Assembly: GCF_035285525.1 (NCBI RefSeq)
Contig: NZ_JAYKGW010000257.1
Location: 1 to 32,000 of the forward strand
Length of the DNA stretch: 32,000 nucleotides
Direction: 5' to 3'
From: Okeania sp.
Lineage (GTDB): Bacteria; Cyanobacteriota; Cyanobacteriia; Cyanobacteriales; Microcoleaceae
Below, one piece after another: positions 6,612 to 29,137 of the stretch; the stretch's first letter is position 1, and every line of letters begins with the position of its first letter. Under the pieces are notes generated by a model. It did no database searches. It worked only from the letters and a program-made list of their open reading frames with translations, and was not told the DNA's origin. A program made the position numbers and the translations under genes.

Positions 6612-6760
6612 AGGACTTACGCAAAGGCACTATATATATAGCCTGTTGGTGCGTTGTGCGTTGTGCGCTTTTGATGTCGCGTAGCGTTTCGGCGCTTGAG
6701 CCGACATATCAAGCGGAGCTTTGCGGAACGCAAAACACACCCTACAAATAGCTTTTAAGT
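6612..6760. mobile_element. MITE of the AGGACTTACGCA family with a long core and a degenerate right end
   Basis: It starts AGGACTTACGCAAAGGCACTATATATATAGCC. The core CATGTCGCGTAGCG...GCGGAGCTTTGCGGAACGCAAAACACACCCTA matches the copy at 14467-14598. The right terminal repeat is eroded. Confidence 0.6.
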
Positions 6761-14739: not shown

Positions 14740-15645
14740 ATGACATCAAACAATCTACGGGAACTTGCTAAACAAGGAGATCCAAAAGTTATCTCCTCAA
14801 TTATCAATCATTCACTACAAAAAAAAGGTATTAATGTCCAAGTCATTAGGGACAATGGTACTCTGGAAATTACACTAGAATCGGATCAAATTTCTAATCA
14901 ACGAGCCTCTCTTGTTGAATTTATCCGAACTGGAATTATGAAATTGGGAGTTGAATCAGTCAATACTGTCAAGGTGTATGGTGTTCAGAGTGATAGTGAA
15001 ATACCAGTATGGGAAGAGGAATTTTTTTTAGGTAGATCATCAGAACACCAGAAATCTGAACTTGAAGAAGAAGGAGGAGATTTTTCAGGTATAAAGGCAT
15101 TAGATCAGGGAATGGAAAGTGGATACGAAACGGAAACAGATGAAGATTACGACGAAGGAGTATATGAGGAAGAGGGAGAATATGAAGATGATGATGATGA
15201 ACTATTACAGGAACCTCAGTCTCAAAAAAAGAATAATTCTTTAGTCCTGAAAGTATTACTGGGATTTGTTTTAGTAGCAGTAGCTGCCTTTGCTGCATTG
15301 TACTTTAGTGGAATATTTCGACTACCATCGTCTAGTCAATCAAAGTCAGAAAACACGACTACTCCTGAACCTAACTTACCTACACCAGAAAACGAAAACA
15401 ACGTTGCCGACTCTAACCCCTGGTATTTTGCTGTTAAAAGCGCTGAAAGTGCTGCCCAAAAAGCTCAGACAGCTCAAACAAAATCTGAATGGAATGAAGT
15501 CGTTAGTGATTGGCAAAAAGCTGTAGAGCTAATGAAGAAAGTACCAGAGTCTGACCAAAATTATCAAAGAGCACAAACAAAAGTTTCTGAGTATCAAAAT
15601 TATCTAGATACAGCAGAGAAGAGAGCTAATAATGCTCCCAATTAA
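14740..15645 (+). CDS. Hypothetical single-pass membrane protein (301 aa) with a conserved cyanobacterial N-domain, an acidic linker, a TM helix and a helical C-domain
   Basis: The N-terminus LAKQGDPKVISSIINHSLQKKGINVQV...LEITLES recurs in many cyanobacterial hypothetical proteins. There is a D/E-rich run (YDEGVYEEEGEYEDDDDE) and a TM segment (LVLKVLLGFVLVAVAAFAALYF). The C-terminal WxxxVxxWQKAVELMKKVPESDQNYQRAQTKVSEYQNYL module follows. Confidence 0.6.
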   Translation: MTSNNLRELAKQGDPKVISSIINHSLQKKGINVQVIRDNGTLEITLESDQISNQRASLVEFIRTGIMKLGVESVNTVKVYGVQSDSEIPVWEEEFFLGRSSEHQKSELEEEGGDFSGIKALDQGMESGYETETDEDYDEGVYEEEGEYEDDDDELLQEPQSQKKNNSLVLKVLLGFVLVAVAAFAALYFSGIFRLPSSSQSKSENTTTPEPNLPTPENENNVADSNPWYFAVKSAESAAQKAQTAQTKSEWNEVVSDWQKAVELMKKVPESDQNYQRAQTKVSEYQNYLDTAEKRANNAPN

Positions 15646-17546: not shown

Positions 17547-17603
17547 TACTTCTCCCCCACTCCCCACTCCCTTACTCCCTTACTCCCTTACTCCCCTACT
17601 TCC
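17547..17603. repeat. Heptamer/octamer short tandem repeat (CACTCCC x2, TTACTCCC x3) abutting the stop codon of the giant gene
   Basis: CCCACTCCCCACTCCCTTACTCCCTTACTCCCTTACTCCCCTACTTCC was read directly. This is typical Nostocales-type spacer repeat sequence. Confidence 0.7.
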
Positions 17604-20600
17604 TTACCACGGACTACCAACCATAGTAAATCCTGACCAATAATAAGGATGAGATAAATTTTTATTTTCAAACTGTCCTAACCCTGAAGGTAAAACTACT
17701 ACACCACGGACTCCAGTTCCCCTTAATTCCCCATCTGCGATAACTACCTCCCCTCGTAACATTGATAACTGTGCTTGTCTTAATGCTTCTGCTTTAATTT
17801 TGGTACGATTCAAATGAGTATAAAATTCTGTCATTAACGCCAATGTCCCCTCATCACTCACATACCAAATACTTGCTAAAGCTGACTTAACTCCTGCTGC
17901 TACTGCTAGTCCGGCAAATCCTAATTCGGCATCTTTGTCTCCGAAGGCGGTGCGACAAGCTGACAATACTAATAATTCTACTGCTGGTTCGTTCCACCCT
18001 AATTCTCTAATTTGGTCTAACTTGAGTTGCTCTGTTCCCCACAACTGAATATAAGAATTGTTGGCTTTTCCTGGTCTAAATTCTGCATGGGTGGCTAGGT
18101 GAATGATGGGATAGGGATAATTTTGTCTTTGACCTAGAAGGTTATCACGAGTAAATTCTTGATTGAGAAATTTGTTGCCTTGCCATATTTCTTGAGATAT
18201 TGTTTCTAATTCTGTGGGTACTGCTGGTAATGGATTTTTGTCTATAAATTGACTTGCTCCCATTGCTAATATTTGGGTGTTTTGAAGTGGTCGGTAGTTG
18301 GTATCCATTAAACTAATACTGGGTATTAAACTGAGACTATATTTTTCAATGAGGAATTGTTCTCCATCGTGTAATGCTGCCATAGGTAAGGTACGCAAAC
18401 CATTGTCCATACTAAAGAGTAGGGTATTGATTTTGGCTGTTTCTAATTCTGCTGCTATGGGTGCAATCAGCCATTTGTATAATTTTTGGGCTGGGGGTAG
18501 ATAACTATGGCTGTCACGACGGAGGGGGTTGGTGATTTCTGCTCGTAGGTTTAAGACGGTTTCCATTAGTTCTTTCCGGTTAATTTGGGGTATGGTTTTG
18601 AGGATGGGGTCACTACCTGGTGTATATAATACGAGTTGCAGGGAGTCTGGGTAGGCGGTAATATAAATAATGGCTGAGTTGTTACCTGTTTGACTGGCAA
18701 TTTTGGTTAGCACTTCCCGGATATTTTGTGTGGATATAGTTTGGTTGTATAGGTCTGACTGAAAGTAGTCAGCAAATTCATTGGTGCGATTTTGTTCTAT
18801 ATTTATGATTGTTTGGGAACTGGCAGCAACTGTGAGGGGTGTTGTATTCACTGTGTTGATGTTTATATGGGTAGGCAGGTTGGGGTTGATGTTGTTTGTC
18901 TGGCGATCGCTTTTTTTATTTAGGGGATTAGGGTTATTGGTGGTTCTGATGGAACTGTTATTTTGAACTGATTGAATAATCTTTGTGGCGATGGAGTTTA
19001 ATGCTCCATTGGTTATGGGTGTTGGGGGTTCTTCTAGGTTGGGTAAAGTTACTGGTATTTGTGGTAATGCTTCTAGTAGAGTATTGTCTATTGATGGATT
19101 AATTGAAATGATTTCACCTGTATTGAGTGAGTCTGCTAGTAGGTTGATGATGTCTCTGATGTTGCCTATGGGGGTAATGTCTCCGGTGGTAATGTTTCGA
19201 TCGGCAATATTGGTAATGTTGGCATCACCGTTTTCGGTAATCGCTGTTTGGTCTCCGGTGGTAATGTTTCGATCGGCAATATTGGTAATGTTGGCATCAC
19301 CGTTTTCGGTAATCGCTGTTTGGTCTCCGGTGGTAATGTTTCGATCGGCAATGTTGGTAATGTTGGCATCACCGTTTTCGGTAATCGCTGTTTGGTCTCC
19401 AGTGGTAATGTTTTGATCGGCAATGTTGGCAATGTTGGCATCACCGTTTTCGGTAATCGCTGTTTGGTCTCCGGTGGTAATATTCCCATCAGCAATATTA
19501 GTAATGTTAGCATCACCTGTTCCACTATCAACTGTTTGGTCTCCAGTCTCAATATTTTCCCCAGCTTGAACTTCTATTCCTCCTGCGGTTCCTGACTCAG
19601 AGCTAGATTCTAAGTCTTGAGTTGTCACGGAACCGTCGGCAGCAATAATTTCTACTTTACCTGCTGCGGTTCCTCCTTGAGTGGTGACGTTGGCAGTTCT
19701 AATATCTCCTTGGGTGCTAAAGGTATTTAAGGCTATATTTCCACTGGTACCATTGGGGGCACGGGTTTGAATTGTTCCTGTATTAATGCTACCACTAATA
19801 CTTTGAATGTTTACGTTTCCACTTCCGGCATTACCAAAGGATGCGACGTTATTAATATTGACAATACCACTAGCATCCAGATTAATATCTCCACCTGTAC
19901 CATTTGCACCGGAGGAATAGGTGGCAATATGATTAATATTGAGATTGCCGTTTTCTTGGGTTTGGAGGGAGATGAAACCACCTGCTCTATTAATTCCTGT
20001 GGAAAATATAACTTCTGTGTTGATGTTACCATTGTTGTTGATAATGTTCACGGTTCCACTATTTTCTCCACCGAAAGAACTTATGTTGCTGGTAGTAATG
20101 TTTCCCTCTCCTCGCTGAATTATGAAAATATTACCACCACTACCTTCGGGAGCGTAGGAACTAAGGTTTGCAGGTTCTTCTGCAAAGATGGTGGCAATAT
20201 TTTCTGAGGATACGTCAGCATTAGTGGAAATATTTGCTTCTCCATTTAAAAGACCGGCGGTAGTATCAATGTTGCCATTGATTGTGTCTAGAGTAATGTC
20301 ACCACCCCTGGTGCCACCACCACTAAAGCTTTCGATAAAACCTGTGCTAATGTTTGTTGTGGCACTGAGGGTGATGTTTCCTCCTTGTCCTGCGGTGGAA
20401 AAGGAGCTTAGTTCGCCAATGCTGGTATCTATTGCACCGTCGGCAGAAATAAAGATGTTGCCACCCTGACCATTACTTTCTGCTGATGAGCTAATGGTTG
20501 CAGTTGTCACATCACTACCACTTGCAATGTTAACGTTTCCACCATTCCCATTACTTTCTGAAAAGGAGGAGATATTTTCTACTTCAATGTTATCAGCACC

Positions 20601-23600
20601 AATAATATTTACATTACCGCCATTACCTTTTCTGGAGGAAGATGCTAACTCACCATTGGTTGTATTAATAGCTCCTGTTTCACTTTTGATAAAAATTTCT
20701 CCTCCGTTGCCTGTGCCAACGGTTCCGGAAAAATCAGAACGAGAGTCAATGTCAGCAAGATTAATGTCGCCTTTACTAATAATGGTGACGTTGCCTGCAT
20801 TTCCGTTTTGACTGTAGGAAACTATTTCTCCGGTGCTGGTGACGGTTCCTTCTCTACTCTGAATGGTAATGTTACCACCAGGATTTTCTTCTACATCTTC
20901 AACTTGAGATTGAGTTATAGTCAAGTCTGCTTCCTTGTTTCTAAAGGAGGATCTATCTTCTGGGTCTCCTGCTGAAGAAAGTATTTCACTGGTACTAATA
21001 TCACCTGTAGCAGTGATCTCAATATTACCTGCTGCTCCTTTACGAGAAAATGATTCAATTTCTTGGGTTTGAATGTTTTCTTGACTATTTAAAGTAATTG
21101 CACCTCCTGAACCGTCTTCTGCTCTAGAAGATATTTTTTTTCCTATTTCTATTCCCCCTGTAGTGCTTTCTATTTCAATATCACCACCTTTTCCATAGCG
21201 ATCGCTTCGAGTATTAATTTCATCTTCTATGATAATGTCACTATGACTTTTGATGGTAACGTTGCCTCCATCGTTAAGGTCGGCGAGACTATTTATTTCT
21301 TTCTGTATGGTGACACTACCTTCTGCACTGGTAACGGTAATATCACCACTCCTGCCTCCATTTGTTTGGGTTGGGGAAATTGGTTCTTCAGGGTTGCCAG
21401 CGGTGGAAAGAAGTTTAGCGGTGGTAATGTTGCCTTCTGCTTCAATGTTAATATTACCTCCATTACTCTGACGAGAGAATGATTCTAAATTCCCTCTTTC
21501 TATTTCAATGGTTCCTCCAGCTCTGAGGGTGATGTCTCCTCCATTTCCCATACCACTTTCATTGTTTGAGATTGCTTCGCTATCGCTCGCAATGACAGAT
21601 GATGATTCCTCTTGGTCTTCAAATTCTGCTCCAGCAAAGGATGAAATATTGTTAGCTTGGATATTTCCCTGAGTCGCAGTAATACTGACACTTCCAGCAT
21701 TCCCATTAAAGGATGAGGATATCAGGTCGCCGTTACTGGTATCAATATTTCCCTTGGTACTTTGGAGGGCAATATTTCCCCCATTACCGTTATCATCAGA
21801 ACGGGAATCTATATTACCTGTAGTTATGTCTAAGTTGCTGGTAATATTTATATGTCCAGCATTTCTTAACCCAGAAAAAGAGCTAAGAAAACCGCTACTG
21901 GTATCAATATTTCCATTCATACTTTCTAGGGTTATGTTGCCACCTTGACCACTACTATTGGCACGAGAATCTATACTTCCTGTGGTTAAGTTACCACTGC
22001 TAGTAATTTTGACGCTTCCAGCATTTCCCAACTCCGAAAAAGAAGACAGTTCACCTCTGCTAGTATTAACATTTTGATTTTGACTTTCTAAAGTAATATC
22101 TCCACCTTTACCATCTCCTTTGGAACGAGAATCTATATTACTGGTTGTGAGATTGCCAGAACTTTGAATATTAATATTACCGCCATCACCACTTCCAGAA
22201 GAAGAAGATAACTCACTATCAATAGTTATAGCACCTGTATTGCTCTTGATGAAAATATCACCCCCATCACTATTGGTATTAGCACGAGAATTAATAGTCG
22301 CTGTTTCCTCCTCTGTTTGGTTATTAAGGATTTCAATATCTCCATGACCTTTAATAGTGATATTACCACCCTTGCTGGTAGCACCAAAACTTTCTATTTC
22401 TGAATTAATAGTTACTGCACCCTCTGTACTTTCAATGATAATGTTCCCTCCTTGACCTATGTTGTCTGAACGGGAGTCAATATTTGCTAATGCTTTGGTT
22501 TCATTGTCACCAATATTAATATCACGAACGGCTTCGATAGTTATATTACCACCATTACCAGAACTGGCAAAACTATTAATTTCTCCTGTGGTGGTTACTG
22601 CACCTGCTGTACTCTTAATATTAATATCACCACCATTAGCACTATTGCTCTGATTCTCGGTTGTTGATGTGGGGTTATTATTTTCGGGGTCTCCAGCAGT
22701 AGAAATAATAACGTTGGTAACAATATCACCCGTTGCTTCTAAACTGATATTTCCTCCAGAACCATTACGAGAAAATGACGTCAAACTAGACTCTGACTCT
22801 GTTCCAGCAGTAGTATCAATATCTCCTCCTGCGGTCAAAGTAATATTTCCCCCATTACCAAAATTTCCAGTTCCCGTAAAATCAGAATCTATTGCAGCAC
22901 CAAGCTCTTGACCTGCAAAAGAAGAAATATTGCCCGTAGTGATATTGCCATCACTGGTAATACTTATATTACCTGCATTCCCTGTCAGGGAAGAAGAGAT
23001 AAGTTCACCATTACTGGTATCAACATTACCAGTCTTGCTTTCGAGAGTAATATTTCCACCCTGAACATTTTCTGAACTAGAATTAATATTACCAGCAATT
23101 AAACTTCCATCACTTTTGACTGTCACATTACCCGCTGTTCCGTCCAGAGAGAGAGAAGATATTTGTGCATCTCCGGCAACACCAGTAGTATCTATACTGC
23201 CGTTGGTACTTTCAATGGTGACATCTCCACCATTACCACCAGATGTTGCTGACTCAATAGTTTCGGTATTAATATTTCTAGCAGCTTTAATGCTGACATT
23301 TCCTGCATTTCCACCGACGGCAACAGTATCTATTTCTTTCGTAAGAGTCACCTTACCTTCTTTACTTTCAATAATAATATCACCACCATTCTTATTATTT
23401 GTGATCGTATTTTCAGCAGTTTCTGTTGTGTCTGTGTTGCCAACATTACCAACAATAGGGTTGCCCGCAGAAGAAAAAACACCCCCAGTAGTAATATCAC
23501 CCTTGCTAGTAATACTAACTCTACCCGCACCACCCAACCGAGAAAATGATTCCAACGTTCCAGCCCTAGTATCTATATTTCCCTCTGCTGTCAGAGTAAT

Positions 23601-26327
23601 ATTTCCTCCATTTCCATCTGCTGTCTGGGGTTGGTCAAAACTAACATCACTGTCATCGAATGGTGATGAATTTCCTAAATCTCCCTGTTGGTCTAGTGCT
23701 TCGCCCGCAGAAGAAAATATATCTGCTGTAGTAATATCGCCCTCACTGGTGATCGTAACATTTCCAGCATTACCTCCAACAGAAAAAGAAACTATTTCGT
23801 CCCTACTGGTATTAACATTTCCACCTGTACTTTCTAGAGTAATATTGCCACCATTACCACCACCATTGGAGCGGGAGTCGATATAACCTGTAGTTAAATT
23901 GTTATCGCTCGTAATAGTAACATCCCCACCATTACCTTGAAGGGAAGCAGAAAATATTGCACCTGCGGTTGTATTAACTTTACCGCCACTATTTATAGTA
24001 ATATCTCCACCCTTATTATTTCCTTGAGTAGAAGCATTAATATCTCCAGTTCTAATATTACCATTTGCATCGAGAAATATATTCCCACCACTGGTTGAAA
24101 TTGAATTAGCTTTCAGGGTAGTTTCAGTAGTATTAATATTCCCGCTGCTAAAAATATTAATATTCCCTGGTTGACCATTAGGAACTGATGTAGTTATCTC
24201 TTCAATTGCAGTAAAATTACCATTAATATTTAACTCTAAATTGCCTCCACCTCTAACTTTAATCCCAGCAAAATCATCACTAACTTCACCGATAATTAAA
24301 TTATTTATAGAATTAATAAATACCCCTTTTTCTCCTGCTAATACTTCTAAATTATTTACATCTATTCGCAAAGGTGCTTCCGCCAAACCTACACCACCAA
24401 TATCTTGAGTTTGAAATATTGCTTGGTCGGCAGTAATTAAAGAATTAAGAGAAACTTGGTTAATATTGCCTTGATTAGCATTAAGAAAAACTTGACCAGT
24501 AGTTATTAAACCAGCCAGATTTATATCACCATTATCTCCTAAATTTCCTAGTTCAATTGTGATATTTCCACTACCTGCATCTAAAGTTGTTCCTGCTTTT
24601 TGATTAATAGAAGCTGCCCCTGGTTCGCGACCATTAATATCAACTCCATCATCATTTCCCAAAAGAGTAATATCACCATTGCCACTAGACGTATTTATAT
24701 CAGCATTTAGATTAATATTTCGTCCAGCTTTTAACTCTATAGACTCCAAAGACTCAGAAGTTTCTATTGATTGATTAACAGTTATATCATTGTCAGCTTC
24801 CAAACTAATATTACCCTCTAATTCTCCTATTTTTTCAGCAGAAAATGTTTGAAACTCCCCTGATTCCCCCTTCAAAGAAAGAGATGTTTCCGCTCCAATA
24901 ATTATATTTTTTGGGTCAAATAATATAGTCCCTCCTTCTCCTAATGCTGCACTAACATTAACATTCCCATCAAAAATTAATCGCTCCTTGCCAGATACTT
25001 CAACAAACCCTCCATTACCAAAAAATTCTCCTCCTTTAGCACTAATATTTCCAGAAAAATTAGTAGTATTATCAGACCAAATTATCACTCGACCGCCATT
25101 ACCATTATTAATAGCATTGGCAGAAATAAAAGAGTTATTATTAACAAAAGTTTGTAGAGAATTAGGAACTATTCCATTGCCTTGGAAGTCGCCTCCAATT
25201 AATATATTTCCTCCTCCATTTAAACCATTGGCATTAATGTTGGCGTCTATTATTGCTATTTGGGAACCTAAGATGTTAATTTGTCCACCTTTTTGGGTTA
25301 TATCCCCCCTAACCCCCCTTTGAAAGGGGGGGACTGGCTCTCCCCTTTGAAAGGGGGGGACTGGCTCTCCCCTTTGGAACGGGGGAATGTGGGATACATC
25401 TATATTTCCAGAAATTACCACAGGAGCAAGATGATCCCACTGTTGTACCGTTGTATCTGTCAAAACCAAATTACCTTCAGCATCAACCATTACAGATGAG
25501 GCGCTGTATCCCCCCTGACCCCCCTTTGAAAGGGGGGAACCTGTTAACAGTTGTGGTAACGATAACAGTGTAATCGACTCTCCCAACAAATTAACAGCAG
25601 CAGGCGATATATCCAAACTTAAAACATGACCTGGTTGAGAGATGCGCAAAACATCTCCACCATTAACCGCAGCGATCGTAATATTTCCACCCGCTGTAGA
25701 AAGTTCCCCTGTATTGACAACCGTGCCGCCAGTCAGAGTAAGATTATTTCCTGGATTTAAAGTTAAATTTCCTTGGTTAACTATAGCCCCTGGGTTAGAA
25801 ACATCAAAACGATACCCACTGGGATTACCCACTAAATTTGAGTAGTTGTTTGTACCTAGTGTTTGAAACCAAAAATTATTGTTATCGAAACCAATACCCG
25901 TGGCAGTAGTAACACTAAAAGAAGCAGGAACATTAAGACTAGCATTAGGGCCAAACATTATACCAGCAGGGTTCATTAAGAAAAGATTAGAATTGCCACC
26001 AATTACTTGAATCAGACCATTAATAGTAGAAGCATTTCCCCCTGTGACTCTACCCAGGATATTCTGAATGTCTGGGGTAGTCAGAAAGTTAGCAGTTTGA
26101 TTAGATTTAACATTAAATTCGCCAAAACTGTGAAATAGGTTAGCACCGTCGTTACTAGGAGAGCCACCTTCGATATTAAATTGGTTGCCATTTTGATTGA
26201 CAGTAGTTCCTGTACCGTCCGTTGCTGGAGTAATAGACTGGGAATGAGCGGGGATGGCGACTGTTCCTAACAGGGAAGTCAAAGCCATCAGGGGATAAAG
26301 ATGTAATTTTAAGAGCTTCATTTGCAT
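17604..26327 (-). CDS. Giant secreted protein (~2907 aa from the ATG at 26327): signal peptide, TPS (haemagglutinin-activity) domain, long degenerate beta-helix repeats, 24-aa tandem repeats, N/T/P-rich linker, C-terminal CHAT domain
   Basis: The signal peptide is MQMKLLKLHLYPLMALTSLLGTVAIPAHSQ. The TPS domain is about 25868-26234 (GANLFHSFGEFNV...ILGRVTGGNASTINGLIQVIGGNSNLFLMNPAGIMFGPNASLNV). Dozens of GGNITL/GGDITI...GNI.T repeats follow. The CHAT region is about 17607-18790, with HLATHAEF (His codon 18087-18089) and LVLSACRTA (Cys codon 17955-17957). The tracked GTG at 26423 lies inside a MITE, so the ATG at 26327 (or 26321) is preferred. Confidence 0.9.
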   Translation of the reverse strand: MQMKLLKLHLYPLMALTSLLGTVAIPAHSQSITPATDGTGTTVNQNGNQFNIEGGSPSNDGANLFHSFGEFNVKSNQTANFLTTPDIQNILGRVTGGNASTINGLIQVIGGNSNLFLMNPAGIMFGPNASLNVPASFSVTTATGIGFDNNNFWFQTLGTNNYSNLVGNPSGYRFDVSNPGAIVNQGNLTLNPGNNLTLTGGTVVNTGELSTAGGNITIAAVNGGDVLRISQPGHVLSLDISPAAVNLLGESITLLSLPQLLTGSPLSKGGQGGYSASSVMVDAEGNLVLTDTTVQQWDHLAPVVISGNIDVSHIPPFQRGEPVPPFQRGEPVPPFQRGVRGDITQKGGQINILGSQIAIIDANINANGLNGGGNILIGGDFQGNGIVPNSLQTFVNNNSFISANAINNGNGGRVIIWSDNTTNFSGNISAKGGEFFGNGGFVEVSGKERLIFDGNVNVSAALGEGGTILFDPKNIIIGAETSLSLKGESGEFQTFSAEKIGELEGNISLEADNDITVNQSIETSESLESIELKAGRNINLNADINTSSGNGDITLLGNDDGVDINGREPGAASINQKAGTTLDAGSGNITIELGNLGDNGDINLAGLITTGQVFLNANQGNINQVSLNSLITADQAIFQTQDIGGVGLAEAPLRIDVNNLEVLAGEKGVFINSINNLIIGEVSDDFAGIKVRGGGNLELNINGNFTAIEEITTSVPNGQPGNINIFSSGNINTTETTLKANSISTSGGNIFLDANGNIRTGDINASTQGNNKGGDITINSGGKVNTTAGAIFSASLQGNGGDVTITSDNNLTTGYIDSRSNGGGNGGNITLESTGGNVNTSRDEIVSFSVGGNAGNVTITSEGDITTADIFSSAGEALDQQGDLGNSSPFDDSDVSFDQPQTADGNGGNITLTAEGNIDTRAGTLESFSRLGGAGRVSITSKGDITTGGVFSSAGNPIVGNVGNTDTTETAENTITNNKNGGDIIIESKEGKVTLTKEIDTVAVGGNAGNVSIKAARNINTETIESATSGGNGGDVTIESTNGSIDTTGVAGDAQISSLSLDGTAGNVTVKSDGSLIAGNINSSSENVQGGNITLESKTGNVDTSNGELISSSLTGNAGNISITSDGNITTGNISSFAGQELGAAIDSDFTGTGNFGNGGNITLTAGGDIDTTAGTESESSLTSFSRNGSGGNISLEATGDIVTNVIISTAGDPENNNPTSTTENQSNSANGGDINIKSTAGAVTTTGEINSFASSGNGGNITIEAVRDINIGDNETKALANIDSRSDNIGQGGNIIIESTEGAVTINSEIESFGATSKGGNITIKGHGDIEILNNQTEEETATINSRANTNSDGGDIFIKSNTGAITIDSELSSSSGSGDGGNINIQSSGNLTTSNIDSRSKGDGKGGDITLESQNQNVNTSRGELSSFSELGNAGSVKITSSGNLTTGSIDSRANSSGQGGNITLESMNGNIDTSSGFLSSFSGLRNAGHINITSNLDITTGNIDSRSDDNGNGGNIALQSTKGNIDTSNGDLISSSFNGNAGSVSITATQGNIQANNISSFAGAEFEDQEESSSVIASDSEAISNNESGMGNGGDITLRAGGTIEIERGNLESFSRQSNGGNINIEAEGNITTAKLLSTAGNPEEPISPTQTNGGRSGDITVTSAEGSVTIQKEINSLADLNDGGNVTIKSHSDIIIEDEINTRSDRYGKGGDIEIESTTGGIEIGKKISSRAEDGSGGAITLNSQENIQTQEIESFSRKGAAGNIEITATGDISTSEILSSAGDPEDRSSFRNKEADLTITQSQVEDVEENPGGNITIQSREGTVTSTGEIVSYSQNGNAGNVTIISKGDINLADIDSRSDFSGTVGTGNGGEIFIKSETGAINTTNGELASSSRKGNGGNVNIIGADNIEVENISSFSESNGNGGNVNIASGSDVTTATISSSAESNGQGGNIFISADGAIDTSIGELSSFSTAGQGGNITLSATTNISTGFIESFSGGGTRGGDITLDTINGNIDTTAGLLNGEANISTNADVSSENIATIFAEEPANLSSYAPEGSGGNIFIIQRGEGNITTSNISSFGGENSGTVNIINNNGNINTEVIFSTGINRAGGFISLQTQENGNLNINHIATYSSGANGTGGDINLDASGIVNINNVASFGNAGSGNVNIQSISGSINTGTIQTRAPNGTSGNIALNTFSTQGDIRTANVTTQGGTAAGKVEIIAADGSVTTQDLESSSESGTAGGIEVQAGENIETGDQTVDSGTGDANITNIADGNITTGDQTAITENGDANIANIADQNITTGDQTAITENGDANITNIADRNITTGDQTAITENGDANITNIADRNITTGDQTAITENGDANITNIADRNITTGDITPIGNIRDIINLLADSLNTGEIISINPSIDNTLLEALPQIPVTLPNLEEPPTPITNGALNSIATKIIQSVQNNSSIRTTNNPNPLNKKSDRQTNNINPNLPTHININTVNTTPLTVAASSQTIINIEQNRTNEFADYFQSDLYNQTISTQNIREVLTKIASQTGNNSAIIYITAYPDSLQLVLYTPGSDPILKTIPQINRKELMETVLNLRAEITNPLRRDSHSYLPPAQKLYKWLIAPIAAELETAKINTLLFSMDNGLRTLPMAALHDGEQFLIEKYSLSLIPSISLMDTNYRPLQNTQILAMGASQFIDKNPLPAVPTELETISQEIWQGNKFLNQEFTRDNLLGQRQNYPYPIIHLATHAEFRPGKANNSYIQLWGTEQLKLDQIRELGWNEPAVELLVLSACRTAFGDKDAELGFAGLAVAAGVKSALASIWYVSDEGTLALMTEFYTHLNRTKIKAEALRQAQLSMLRGEVVIADGELRGTGVRGVVVLPSGLGQFENKNLSHPYYWSGFTMVGSPW
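19179..19538 (-). repeat. Five tandem 72-bp units inside the giant gene, encoding TGDQTAITENGDANITNIADRNIT x5
   Basis: The units are 19179-19250, 19251-19322, 19323-19394, 19395-19466 and 19467-19538. Units 1 and 2 are identical and unit 3 differs by one base. Units 4 and 5 are progressively diverged. Confidence 0.95.
25314..25386 (-). repeat. 27-bp G/C-rich palindrome-containing unit repeated about 2.7 times in-frame in the giant gene (PPFQRGEPV x3)
   Basis: CCCCTTTGAAAGGGGGGGACTGGCTCT occurs twice, followed by the partial CCCCTTTGGAACGGGGG. Each unit contains the palindrome CCCCTTTGAAAGGGG. A related single copy, CCCCCCTTTGAAAGGGGGG, lies at 25520-25538 and encodes SPLSKGGQGG. Confidence 0.85.
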
Positions 26328-26355
26328 TTTTAGGGAACACTTAACTGGGAACAGT

Positions 26356-26857
26356 ATGAACGCTATTAGTAGGGTGTGTTTCGCTACGCGACATGAAAAG
26401 CCCACTTCGTCAGGCATCGACACACTATATATAGTACCTTTGCGTAACTCCTGTTAATATTAGGACTTACGCACGAAGGCTATTGGTAGAGTCCGTTAGC
26501 GTCAGCGTCACGCACTAATACTCTGTATATAGTGTCTTTGCGTAACTCCTGAATATGAAAAAAATAACTATGATTTGTTATTGTATATCTTTTTTAGGAC
26601 TTACGCACGCGCAACGTGTTTCTGTCATTGCGGGATTCGCAGCTTTGCGATAGCAAGCCACAGGGTTTCGCTCCGCGACATGAATGGGTGGGTCGCAGTC
26701 CGTCAGGATAGCAATCTAAAGCCAAGAAAATTGCGTTCCTCATGGCTTTAGTCCTGTTTTTCATTATTAGGACTTACGCATAGACCCTATCTGTAAGGTG
26801 CGTTACCCTGACGCTAACGCACCAATACTCTATATATAGTGCTTTTGCGTAAGTCCT
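26356..26857. mobile_element. Array of four AGGACTTACGCA-family MITEs: A 26356-26452 (left end truncated), B 26462-26550, C 26596-26755, D 26769-26857
   Basis: Copies B and D have both termini (AGGACTTACGCA ... TTTGCGTAA(C/G)TCCT) and a GGTGCGTTA...TAACGCACC-type core. Copies A and C carry the CGCGACATGAA long core in the inverse orientation to copy 14467. All lie within 530 bp 5' of the giant gene. Confidence 0.75.
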
Positions 26858-26985
26858 GATTATATCAGTTGCTATAGTAATTACTATTTGAGATGAAACA
26901 GTCCACTACTTATTAAGGTGACTATAATATTATGAAGCATTAGTCGTTAATTTTTCTGGTTCTACAGGAGAATTATGTAATAACA

Positions 26986-28015: not shown

Positions 28016-29137
28016 TTAGGAAAATTCATCTAAAATGAAATCCTCTGCGCTAATACTTGGCGCACCTTTCAAAGTAGCTATTTTGTTGCCACCGCCCAAA
28101 CCAGGTAGGGCACCGTTGGCATTATAATATAAATCTCCAGTGGAGCGAACGTAAACGATATCTGCTACAGAACCAGCAACGGCTTTTTTGTTTTTTACTG
28201 ATGCAAATTCTCGCTCAATACTAAATCCTTTTCCTACTTCACTACCAAGAGTGATAAAAGTATCTGTATTGAGAACAATATTGTCAACATTGGGTCGAAA
28301 ATCTGTGATAGTATCAACGCCCAAGTCTTCTCTCCTGTAAGCTCTGTTGCTGCCTATCAGAAAATCATCTGCACCGCCACCACCTGTTAATGTATCGTTT
28401 CCGGCGCCACCGAATAGTTCGTCAGCACCACCACGACCGATTAAAGTATCGTTACCGTTTCCGCCATTGATTCTCTCAGCTTGATTAGTTCCTCGGAGTC
28501 GGTTGTTTTCATTATCACCGTTCATAGTTCTATTGGGGCCTGGATCAGAACTGGAAAACTCCCATTCCAGAAGAGCTAGACTGTTTCTATAATCATAACC
28601 ACCGAAGCCAACATAAGCCTTGTTACCGATAATACCTTCAATATCGACTTTTGTAGACAACAAAGGATTTTTAGGTTTAGTAGTCGTGGTAGATGTAAAA
28701 ACTTTTAGTCGATCATTCTTGCTCTTATATTCAATCCAAACATTAATCTCTTCATCGCGCTCTAAGTCTAAATCGTCAGGTTGAACTGAAACTAAAGGTA
28801 TAGGACTACCGTTGGTATTAATTAAAATACCCTGTAAACTGTCTAATTCTACAGCTACACTTGATAAAATTCCTACGCCACTATCAAAAGAGTGAGTTGC
28901 TACAGCAATATCTTCTCTTGGATCGTCATGTAGTATGAATGTTAAACCAGTGTTTTGTCCTACTTGATATCGAAAATTGGTTTCAAAAGAAGTATCTTCA
29001 TCAAACCTAATTTGTTCAGAAAAAAAGGCACTACCTTTATTTTGATCGTTAGCATCAAACTCTAAAGTCTGGCCTATTCTAGCTGCTCCTTCATTAAAAG
29101 TAAACTCGAAAAAGTTGTTAGAACTTAATTTAACCAT
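28016..29137 (-). CDS. Secreted L-type (legume-like) lectin domain protein with RTX calcium-binding nonapeptide repeats (373 aa)
   Basis: The N-terminal half has a legume-lectin-like pattern (KGSAFFSEQIRFDEDTSFETNFRYQV...GLTFILHDDP...SVAVELDS). The C-terminal half has GGNGNDTLIGRGGADELFGGAGNDTLTGGGGADDF nonapeptides and a cyanobacterial RTX tail (DTITDF...ADIVYVRSTGDLYYNANG...ATLKGAPSISAEDF). No N-terminal signal peptide is evident, which fits a type I secretion substrate. Confidence 0.75.
   Translation of the reverse strand: MVKLSSNNFFEFTFNEGAARIGQTLEFDANDQNKGSAFFSEQIRFDEDTSFETNFRYQVGQNTGLTFILHDDPREDIAVATHSFDSGVGILSSVAVELDSLQGILINTNGSPIPLVSVQPDDLDLERDEEINVWIEYKSKNDRLKVFTSTTTTKPKNPLLSTKVDIEGIIGNKAYVGFGGYDYRNSLALLEWEFSSSDPGPNRTMNGDNENNRLRGTNQAERINGGNGNDTLIGRGGADELFGGAGNDTLTGGGGADDFLIGSNRAYRREDLGVDTITDFRPNVDNIVLNTDTFITLGSEVGKGFSIEREFASVKNKKAVAGSVADIVYVRSTGDLYYNANGALPGLGGGNKIATLKGAPSISAEDFILDEFS

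Follow-up and report, generated by a model that had tools for sequence, protein, structure and literature searches.

What does a caspase-like protease do at the end of a secreted fibre protein whose transporter is not encoded nearby? The question is raised by a gene of Okeania sp., a marine filamentous genus of the Microcoleaceae. We analysed a 32,000-nucleotide stretch of DNA (positions 1 to 32,000 of contig NZ_JAYKGW010000257.1; hereafter the window). Its minus strand encodes a giant protein that starts like the exoprotein (TpsA) of a two-partner secretion (TPS) system and ends in a CHAT domain; we refer to it as the TPS-CHAT protein. Work on two-partner secretion has dealt almost entirely with proteobacterial pathogens, and the passengers there are adhesins, cytolysins or polymorphic toxins. 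Judged by its relatives, the Okeania protein is no one-off and belongs to a large family of filamentous cyanobacteria. Comparison of gene neighbourhoods further indicates that a CHAT protease is a regular third TPS partner in cyanobacteria, whether exported as a protein of its own or joined to the fibre. Our preferred reading, held tentatively and at a probability of roughly 40%, is of a cyanobacteria-specific family of TpsA-type giant exoproteins. These would be exported by a transporter (TpsB) supplied in trans, with CHAT as the system's own protease on the periplasmic side.

The gene encodes a TpsA-type protein with a C-terminal CHAT module

The minus-strand open reading frame (ORF) at 17604..26423 spans 2,939 codons without interruption. 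A database protein, WP_324239192.1 / MEB3343763.1 ('CHAT domain-containing protein [Okeania sp.]'; 2,905 amino acids (aa), 49-kb contig), is 100% identical to its product. Since this entry is full-length, the deposited annotation also takes the gene to be intact. A previous description of the locus, made from the sequence alone and here called the sequence-only reading, had called the gene over the whole frame. The open, intact frame stands; the start does not. GTG 26423 sits within a partial copy of a repeat that resembles a miniature inverted-repeat transposable element (MITE), and hence was not taken as the start. The true start is ATG 26321, as in WP_324239192.1, with 26327 as a possible alternative. 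The coordinates of all features are collected in Table 1.

At E ≤ 0.01, Pfam finds only two families in the protein, PF05860 and PF12770. The first is the TPS domain (E 5.8e-41; 141 bits, cutoff 33.5). It is preceded by a predicted Sec signal peptide that, read by eye, has a basic n-region, a hydrophobic core and small residues at −3 and −1. In phmmer searches the TPS domain aligns with the solved TPS domains of EtpA (8CPK, 1.7e-8), HMW1 (2ODL) and HxuA (4I84). A second block, residues 403-585, matches residues 357-539 of EtpA 8VBA (E 2e-13). The fibre that follows is about 1,700 aa long and rich in Gly, Asn, Ser, Thr and Ile. It holds 25 GG[ND]I..-type motifs, has a composition like that of beta-helices and is periodic in sequence at 27 and 54 residues (z = 3.8 and 4.8). 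In the mature protein acidic residues far outnumber basic ones (318 Asp and Glu against 136 Lys and Arg). N-glycosylation sequons are mildly enriched (83 against 66 ± 7); the enrichment being only mild, the idea of HMW1C-type glycosylation was set aside.

The C-terminal module, 395 residues long, matches positions 2-289 of the 289-position PF12770 profile (E 1.9e-69; 235 bits, cutoff 24). An AlphaFold2 (AF2) model, built on 27 family sequences, has a predicted local distance difference test score (pLDDT) of 91 and a predicted TM-score (pTM) of 0.92. The best Foldseek match of this model is the Craspase component Csx29, a TPR-CHAT protease of type III-E systems (E 1e-14, TM 0.59). Its other neighbours include separase, SAVED-CHAT and the periplasmic domain of the anti-sigma factor DdvA, and there is a weak match to the secreted clan-CD gingipain RgpB. 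A profile of the module gave nothing meaningful against the sequences of the PDB. The predicted catalytic residues, His2779 and Cys2823, are kept in 103 of 103 aligned relatives and are invariant in alignment A1. Together with these, about 80 positions of the CHAT module are at least 95% conserved across 104 relatives. By profile, dyad and modelled fold, which is of the caspase/separase type, the module is a bona fide member of the CHAT family (clan CD), with predicted protease activity. Cys2823 is also the sole Cys of the mature protein, and exactly one Cys is likewise present in 58 of 83 TPS-CHAT cluster representatives. A single, catalytic Cys is consistent with export in an unfolded state. 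Taken together, these matches bear out the layout proposed by the sequence-only reading: a TPS exoprotein start, a repeat-rich middle and a complete C-terminal CHAT domain.

The family is large and conserved at both ends

A protein search over 5.8 billion sequences returned more than 2,100 matches at E ≤ 1e-10, and the best 120 were analysed. All 120 have the N-terminal TPS domain, and in 104 the CHAT domain ends at the last residue. The other 16 stop within the repeats, and so were taken to be contig-end or repeat-induced truncations. Their break-off point is the class of 72-bp repeat that lies at the fibre end of the Okeania protein, where the number of copies probably varies and is easily misassembled. 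Both the 72-bp and the 27-bp DNA repeats of the gene are near-perfect, so that the assembled copy number may be inexact. All named sources in the protein search are filamentous cyanobacteria (Okeania, Dapis, Trichodesmium, Oscillatoria, Kamptonema, Planktothrix, Planktothricoides, Laspinema and others). In several cases there are many copies per genome, sometimes in tandem (Oscillatoria princeps, L002). A HMMER search with the CHAT module alone gave 5,626 cluster representatives at E ≤ 1e-30, and in each of the top 150 the module sits at the very C-terminal end.

Median identity to the relatives is 58% for the TPS domain and 63% for CHAT, against 30% for the fibre. This conservation suggests strong purifying selection on both ends. 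Intact members of the family number in the hundreds and the Okeania protein is an ordinary one, although the family as a whole is experimentally untouched. NCBIfam has no model for the Okeania protein. The system is also present in the unicellular Gloeothece. Members of the same CHAT subfamily (>50% identity) exist as stand-alone proteins, with a signal peptide and CHAT and without a TPS domain.

The conservation of the C-terminus bears on a role like that of CdiA. The sequence-only reading had placed CHAT where CdiA carries its toxin tip, and had listed contact-dependent effector delivery among the candidate roles. In such a system the fibre would bind a neighbouring cell and deliver CHAT as a toxic protease, for contact-dependent killing or kin recognition. 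The layout of TPS domain, long putative beta-helix and C-terminal enzyme is as expected for this, as are the many paralogues per genome with their variable fibres. However, the module that should be polymorphic is the one with the highest conservation. The protein has no VENN or [VL][DE]NN motif and no Pfam match to Fil_haemagg_2 or PT-VENN, and cdiB is not adjacent. The 787 bp downstream of the gene hold only chance ORFs of 35-46 aa and no immunity gene. No conserved immunity-type ORF was found downstream in the window or in the relatives, whose downstream genes are unrelated. With a conserved C-terminus, no pretoxin motif and no immunity gene, contact-dependent delivery is poorly supported. 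We consider it very unlikely and rejected a CdiA-like toxin on these grounds, together with the lack of an adjacent cdiB.

Two further observations concern the relatives. In some paralogues a P-domain (proprotein-convertase, PF01483) lies inside the fibre (P0033, P0039, P0042, P0045, P0055, P0072, P0080 and others), and one such TPS-CHAT paralogue belongs to Trichodesmium erythraeum IMS101. A 2.9-kb contig (L034, WTIT01000132.1) in a bin labelled 'Methanobacteriota archaeon' carries a fragment 65% identical to the TPS-CHAT N-terminus; this cyanobacterial-like fragment is most likely contamination of the bin.

TpsB is absent from the loci of fused genes

The sequence-only reading saw no TpsB in the 32-kb window and called the gene an orphan. 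The first statement is correct. A hidden Markov model (HMM) of 120 cyanobacterial TpsBs found no match among the six-frame ORFs of at least 60 aa in the window. Similarly, a Pfam scan of 18 larger window ORFs, including both flanks of the gene, found no POTRA or ShlB domain. As a peculiarity of this gene, the label does not hold. We assembled 33 loci with fused TPS-CHAT genes, namely the window and 32 from Okeania, Dapis, Trichodesmium, Oscillatoria and relatives, with flanks of up to 10 kb or to the contig end. The TpsB HMM found a TpsB at none of the 33. Hence, being an 'orphan' is the rule in this family.

Cyanobacterial TpsB proteins are abundant (>4,000 matches), and some are encoded by solitary genes, as in Lyngbya aestuarii (L037) and in an Oscillatoriales metagenome-assembled genome (L047). 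Previously, TPS barrels were reported for Trichodesmium, even one fused to its passenger (Tery_3487; Arnold et al., 2010, PMC2878562). Because relatives have solitary TpsBs, and Trichodesmium is reported to have barrels of the TpsB type, supply of TpsB in trans is plausible.

A TpsA without a transporter could also be a relic, non-functional or no longer secreted, and stranded among MITEs and toxin-antitoxin debris. The absence of TpsB from the window and from all fused loci would fit this, as would the MITE-like elements that abut the start codon. We regard it as extremely improbable. The 8.7-kb frame is intact, the catalytic dyad and about 80 CHAT positions are conserved, both ends are apparently under strong purifying selection, and hundreds of family members are intact. 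A pseudogene was rejected for these reasons.

A CHAT protease accompanies TPS genes in split clusters

In other cyanobacteria the fibre and the protease are encoded separately. We collected 11 split TPS loci by tblastn of plasmids and by TpsB look-ups. Near the TPS genes are CHAT (9 of 11), CHASE2 (7 of 11), DUF928 (7 of 11), DUF1822 with or without sigma-70 (6 of 11) and TpsB (4 of 11). This neighbourhood recurs in L005, L006, L007, L036, L038, L040, L042, L043, L044 and L045. Tight tpsA-tpsB-TPR-CHAT operons are found in four of them (L036, L045, L007 and L044). In Microcoleus FACHB-53 (L036), tpsA (1,149 aa) is overlapped by tpsB by 11 nt and accompanied by TPR-CHAT (954 aa). Plasmid p1 of Planktothrix agardhii (L007) and a 200-kb metagenomic contig (L045) encode an RTX protein, TpsB, TpsA, TPR-CHAT, DUF928, AAA_35-CHASE2 and AAA_35. 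In Nostoc UHCC 0302 (L044), DUF1822, CHASE2, DUF928, TpsA, TpsB, CHAT and TPS form a single co-directional row. The split version is also present on pNPUN03 of Nostoc punctiforme and on pAlpha of Anabaena PCC 7120, both genera being genetically tractable.

The N-termini of the TPR-CHAT proteins are signal-peptide-like in all four cases read (L005, L006, L007 and L036), and they lack a TPS domain. Such proteins should therefore act in the periplasm. The presence of TPR-CHAT beside tpsA/tpsB at 9 of the 11 split loci points to an extracytoplasmic protease intrinsic to the system. In the split TpsAs themselves, again in four of four read, the last 130 aa or so form a conserved module that holds exactly two Cys, spaced 96-110 residues apart. 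Its pattern is ..C..TGRGGLP...EAxGW..kG.v.LvA...SC.., and these are the only Cys beyond the signal-peptide region. The arrangement recalls the C-terminal disulfide anchor of HMW1. The EAxGW motif is absent from the window protein and from all but 2 of its 120 closest relatives; CHAT takes up the C-terminus instead.

The cluster CHASE2 proteins have an N-terminal domain that is either CHAT-like (E 1e-15 to 6e-7) or AAA_35 of STAND type. They would act as receptors, the head being caspase-like or an NTPase and assumed to lie on the cytoplasmic side. DUF928, CHASE2, DUF1822 or AAA_35 also lie beside some fused genes (L003, L009, L010, L011, L024, L032 and L035; more weakly L008 and L028). None of the four was found in the window.

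These associations raise a wider alternative, which we think unlikely. The fibre would be the antenna of a caspase-like system that spans the envelope and serves signalling, defence or cell death, and the exported CHAT would be activated by contact, damage or phage. The protease might then cut DUF928, or the periplasmic CHASE2 part of a receptor with a cytoplasmic CHAT-like protease or AAA_35 STAND NTPase, and so trigger a DUF1822/sigma-70 response or suicide; we put the odds of this route equally low. The recurrence of the split neighbourhood, the N-terminal domains of the CHASE2 proteins and the retention of partners at some fused loci all speak for such a system. So does DdvA, a periplasmic TPR-CHAT protein proposed to start sigma-factor release in phage defence. 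However, the window has no partner gene and about 24 of the 33 fused loci lack partners. With the PADLOC defence models the only match was a marginal one to BovA (1.2e-5), and the occurrence in unicellular Gloeothece weakens a link to multicellularity.

Were the signalling alternative correct, which we doubt, then fibre, TpsB, exported CHAT, DUF928, CHASE2 receptor and DUF1822/sigma-70 would make up an undescribed, cyanobacteria-wide trans-envelope caspase-like pathway, with the fibre outermost. With similarly low probability, contact at the surface, damage to the envelope or attack by phage would be relayed by this pathway as a proteolytic signal that leads to a transcriptional or cell-death response. 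It is no more probable that Okeania and similar Oscillatoriales have the sensor of such a pathway fused to its first protease and multiplied into large paralogue families with hypervariable fibres.

In Okeania sp. SIO1H4 (L003:3865-9370), genes for AAA_35-WD40, HTH_VMAP-M9-AAA_35 and CyanoTRADDas_TM proteins precede a fused TPS-CHAT paralogue. These are STAND components of the conflict-system type, and HTH_VMAP-M9-AAA_35 also occurs in the split cluster L045.

A periplasmic site of action is favoured

The preferred reading, an extracytoplasmic protease fused to its own fibre, would proceed as follows. After Sec export, a TpsB of the ShlB/FhaC type, with its gene elsewhere in the genome, would bind the TPS domain through its POTRA domains. 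The repeat region would then be threaded out and fold as a surface fibre on the trichome. Both steps are modelled on the established TPS pathway. Comparative genomics suggests that CHAT would be the extracytoplasmic protease of the system, the fused equivalent of the Sec-exported TPR-CHAT proteins, and not a polymorphic toxin. The last steps are the least certain. CHAT may enter the periplasm last, fold and stay at the periplasmic face as a stopper. As a regulated protease it might then cut a tether or a partner, with release or maturation of the fibre as the result.

The best-studied long TpsAs (FhaB, CdiA and HMW1) keep their C-termini in the periplasm, at least transiently. A periplasmic CHAT is favoured because of the position of these C-termini, including the FhaB prodomain, and because CHAT would be the last part of the chain to reach the periplasm. 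It is favoured also because the split counterparts are predicted to be periplasmic, and because CHAT takes the place of the two-Cys module of split TpsAs. DdvA is a solved precedent, being a periplasmic TPR-CHAT protein with a proposed self-cleaving role.

The protease could instead be carried outside the cell, which we consider possible but doubtful. The whole chain would pass TpsB, leaving CHAT at the distal end of the fibre as a surface-displayed or released effector. Its targets might in that case be matrix or sheath proteins, neighbouring filaments, epibionts, grazers or phage. CHAT is indeed C-terminal on a long stalk with a flexible linker. With one Cys and no disulfides, the domain should be exportable unfolded; the weak fold match to secreted RgpB, and the P_proprotein domains of extracellular type in some paralogues, point the same way. 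The Pseudomonas aeruginosa system LepA/LepB provides an example of a TPS-secreted protease. Conversely, the CHAT of split loci is on a separate Sec-exported protein that has no TPS domain and hence is unable to use TpsB. The stand-alone members of the subfamily, with a signal peptide and CHAT only, also speak against an effector, as do the periplasmic C-termini of FhaB, CdiA and HMW1.

Several points weigh against a periplasmic CHAT exported through a TpsB in trans. Export of a C-terminal domain to the tip of the fibre is possible, with TPS-secreted enzymes and the secreted gingipains of clan CD as examples. A conserved candidate cleavage site was sought in the linker and none was found; the linker is detectable in only 17 of 119 relatives, and the first 40 columns of alignment A1 have no consensus. 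The fused CHAT and the split TPR-CHAT partners share only about 32% identity, so that their functional equivalence is something we infer. The AF2 model of the N-terminal 440 aa, made with an 11-sequence alignment, is poor (pLDDT 55). The complete lack of TpsB at fused loci counts here too. A scan of Okeania and Trichodesmium genomes returned TPS-CHAT loci only, all without TpsB, and a chimeric TPS+ShlB query for TpsA-TpsB fusions returned only ordinary TpsBs of other taxa. Set against the periplasmic protease, the alternatives rank, by decreasing weight, as effector protease, signalling arm, CdiA-like toxin and relic.

Features of the window

Table 1. Positions of the TPS-CHAT gene, its parts and associated features. 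Positions refer to the window unless a locus is named; residues are numbered over the 2,939-codon frame.
Feature	Position	Strand	Remarks
TPS-CHAT exoprotein coding sequence	17604..26321	−	2,905 aa from ATG 26321; ORF runs on to GTG 26423
Predicted Sec signal peptide, MKLLKLHLYPLMALTSLLGTVAIPAHS, followed by QS	26241..26321	−	Cleavage after AHS; judged by eye
TPS domain, aa 69-266	25626..26219	−	Pfam PF05860; NPAGI motif at aa 151
27-bp in-frame tandem repeat (PPFQRGEPV), 2.6 copies	25315..25385	−	TRF, 95% matches; protein motif 3 times
EtpA-like post-TPS block (putative beta-helix), GGNILIGGDFQG...GGFVEVSG, aa 403-585	24669..25217	−	phmmer
Variable acidic repeat fibre, Cys-free, aa 586-2302	19518..24668	−	GGNITL / GNAGNV motifs; period 27/54 aa
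72-bp in-frame tandem repeat TGDQTAITENGDANITNIADRNIT, 4.7 copies, at fibre end	19179..19517	−	TRF, 94% matches
Asn/Pro/Thr-rich low-complexity linker, aa 2416-2544, ~130 aa	18792..19178	−	Composition
C-terminal CHAT protease module, aa 2545-2939 (activity predicted)	17607..18791	−	Pfam CHAT covers aa 2643-2937
Predicted catalytic His2779 codon (HLATHAEF)	18087..18089	−	Kept in relatives; codon checked
Predicted catalytic Cys2823 codon (LSACRTA)	17955..17957	−	Kept in relatives; codon checked
MITE-like array, ~100-nt elements, ends AGGACTTACGCA / TGCGTAAGTCCT	26414..26863		5' region of gene; 4 matches against 0 expected
CHASE2 proteins with N-terminal CHAT-like or AAA_35 domain	L005:17222-19567, L006:7509-9794, L040:23941-26316, L028:23982-26507, L007:17020-19338, L045:18302-20650		
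Split TpsAs with two-Cys C-terminal module	L005:12001-14067, L006:12001-17556, L007:6920-10615, L036:6562-10011		

The gene is flanked by an AbrB-like gene, MITE-like repeats, a DUF4926 ORF and a gene for a lectin with RTX repeats, in agreement with the flanks listed by the sequence-only reading. Full copies of the MITE-like element lie at 26458-26556 and 26765-26863, the partial copy covers the spurious GTG, and one end is found at 6612-6636. The legume-lectin and RTX gene (28016-29137, minus strand) is 1.6 kb upstream of the TPS-CHAT gene and on the same strand. A small protein with RTX repeats adjoins TpsB in clusters of the Planktothrix type (L007:10731-11549; L045:9028-9861). The phmmer match between this and the lectin-RTX protein of the window is weak (2e-5) and runs via the RTX repeats only.

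Directly 3' of the TPS-CHAT stop codon, at 17552-17607, is an 8-bp (or 16-bp) tandem repeat, CTCCCCTA, in 6 copies. A plus-strand ORF at 14740-15645 encodes 301 aa with an extremely acidic middle and one predicted transmembrane helix, and has no significant Pfam or PADLOC match. Rfam has no match in the window, and scans of it for promoters and terminators were at chance level.

Significance

Our full-text literature search found no paper on a TPS fibre together with a CHAT protease, whether fused or in an operon. TPS-CHAT is mentioned neither by Kaur et al. (2020) nor in the Anabaena exoproteome and EXCRETE papers. In the literature searched, we also found no paper describing the split tpsA-TPR-CHAT-DUF928-CHASE2 neighbourhood. 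The combination of TPS and CHAT is already visible in database annotations, and is absent from the papers that we searched. For cyanobacterial TPS proteins in general, no functional data exist (Arnold et al., 2010, PMC2878562). The statement of the sequence-only reading that the function is not experimentally defined thus agrees with both sources.

Many hypervariable TPS-CHAT copies are carried by filamentous genera that form blooms and mats (Okeania, Trichodesmium, Dapis, Oscillatoria and Planktothrix). The family bears on the interactions of trichomes among themselves, with epibionts and with phage. It also bears on the caspase-like activities long discussed in Trichodesmium cell death. Should the protease mature, release or signal from the fibre, type Vb secretion would gain a new regulatory principle and CHAT a new extracytoplasmic role. 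The only studied periplasmic example of CHAT is DdvA. Envelope-spanning caspase-like signalling in cyanobacteria would, if true, be of high interest. Because the family is large and its catalytic residues are clear, the question is directly testable in tractable relatives.

Comparison with known systems

The TPS-CHAT protein resembles TpsAs of the EtpA, HMW1 and FhaB type in its Sec signal peptide, its N-proximal TPS domain with an NPxGI motif, its long repeat fibre, which is probably rich in beta-strands, and its few Cys. With EtpA there is direct sequence homology through residue 585. It differs in having no adjacent TpsB, its own class of 27/54-aa repeats and a free-living filamentous cyanobacterial host. 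Whereas the C-terminus of those proteins is an adhesin tip, a prodomain or the HMW1 disulfide loop, the TPS-CHAT protein has a CHAT protease. On sequence grounds it may be classed as a TpsA in part: it has the signal peptide, the TPS domain and the EtpA homology, and lacks the local link to TpsB. CdiA shares with it the TPS domain, the long filament and the enzymatic C-terminus. The pattern of variation is the inverse, the C-terminus being conserved and the filament variable, and VENN, immunity gene and cdiB are missing.

Among CHAT proteases, Csx29, separase and DdvA have a similar fold (Foldseek E 1e-14 to 1e-7; TM up to 0.59 over ~385 columns) and their His-Cys dyad is at the same canonical positions. 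The CHAT module differs in carrying a TpsA fibre in place of TPR, and its sequence identity to these proteins is 13-16%. The window lacks the CRISPR context of Csx29 and the sigma/anti-sigma context of DdvA. Likewise, Pfam finds no Cas gene or TPR in the window. The likeness to Csx29 of the type III-E Craspase is in fold only, and the protein is not a Craspase component. In DdvA the CHAT domain lies outside the cytoplasm, as is predicted for the TPS-CHAT module. Clan-CD cysteine proteases within or attached to giant secreted or surface proteins are also known from MARTX and TcdB, with their cysteine protease domain (CPD), and from the gingipains and PorU. The MARTX/TcdB CPD and the gingipains belong to other families (C80 and C25, not CHAT) and use another secretion route. 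The present analysis gave no sign of autoprocessing or of a co-factor switch in the TPS-CHAT protein.

The split clusters tpsA-tpsB-TPR-CHAT of P. agardhii p1, Microcoleus FACHB-53 and Nostoc UHCC 0302 differ from the window gene in that TpsA and CHAT are separate polypeptides. The fused protein lacks TPR and the two-Cys module, and at its locus TpsB and the accessory genes are not linked to it. The two arrangements have the same three modules, namely TPS fibre, exported CHAT and TPS pathway, and at some fused loci they share the same accessory genes.

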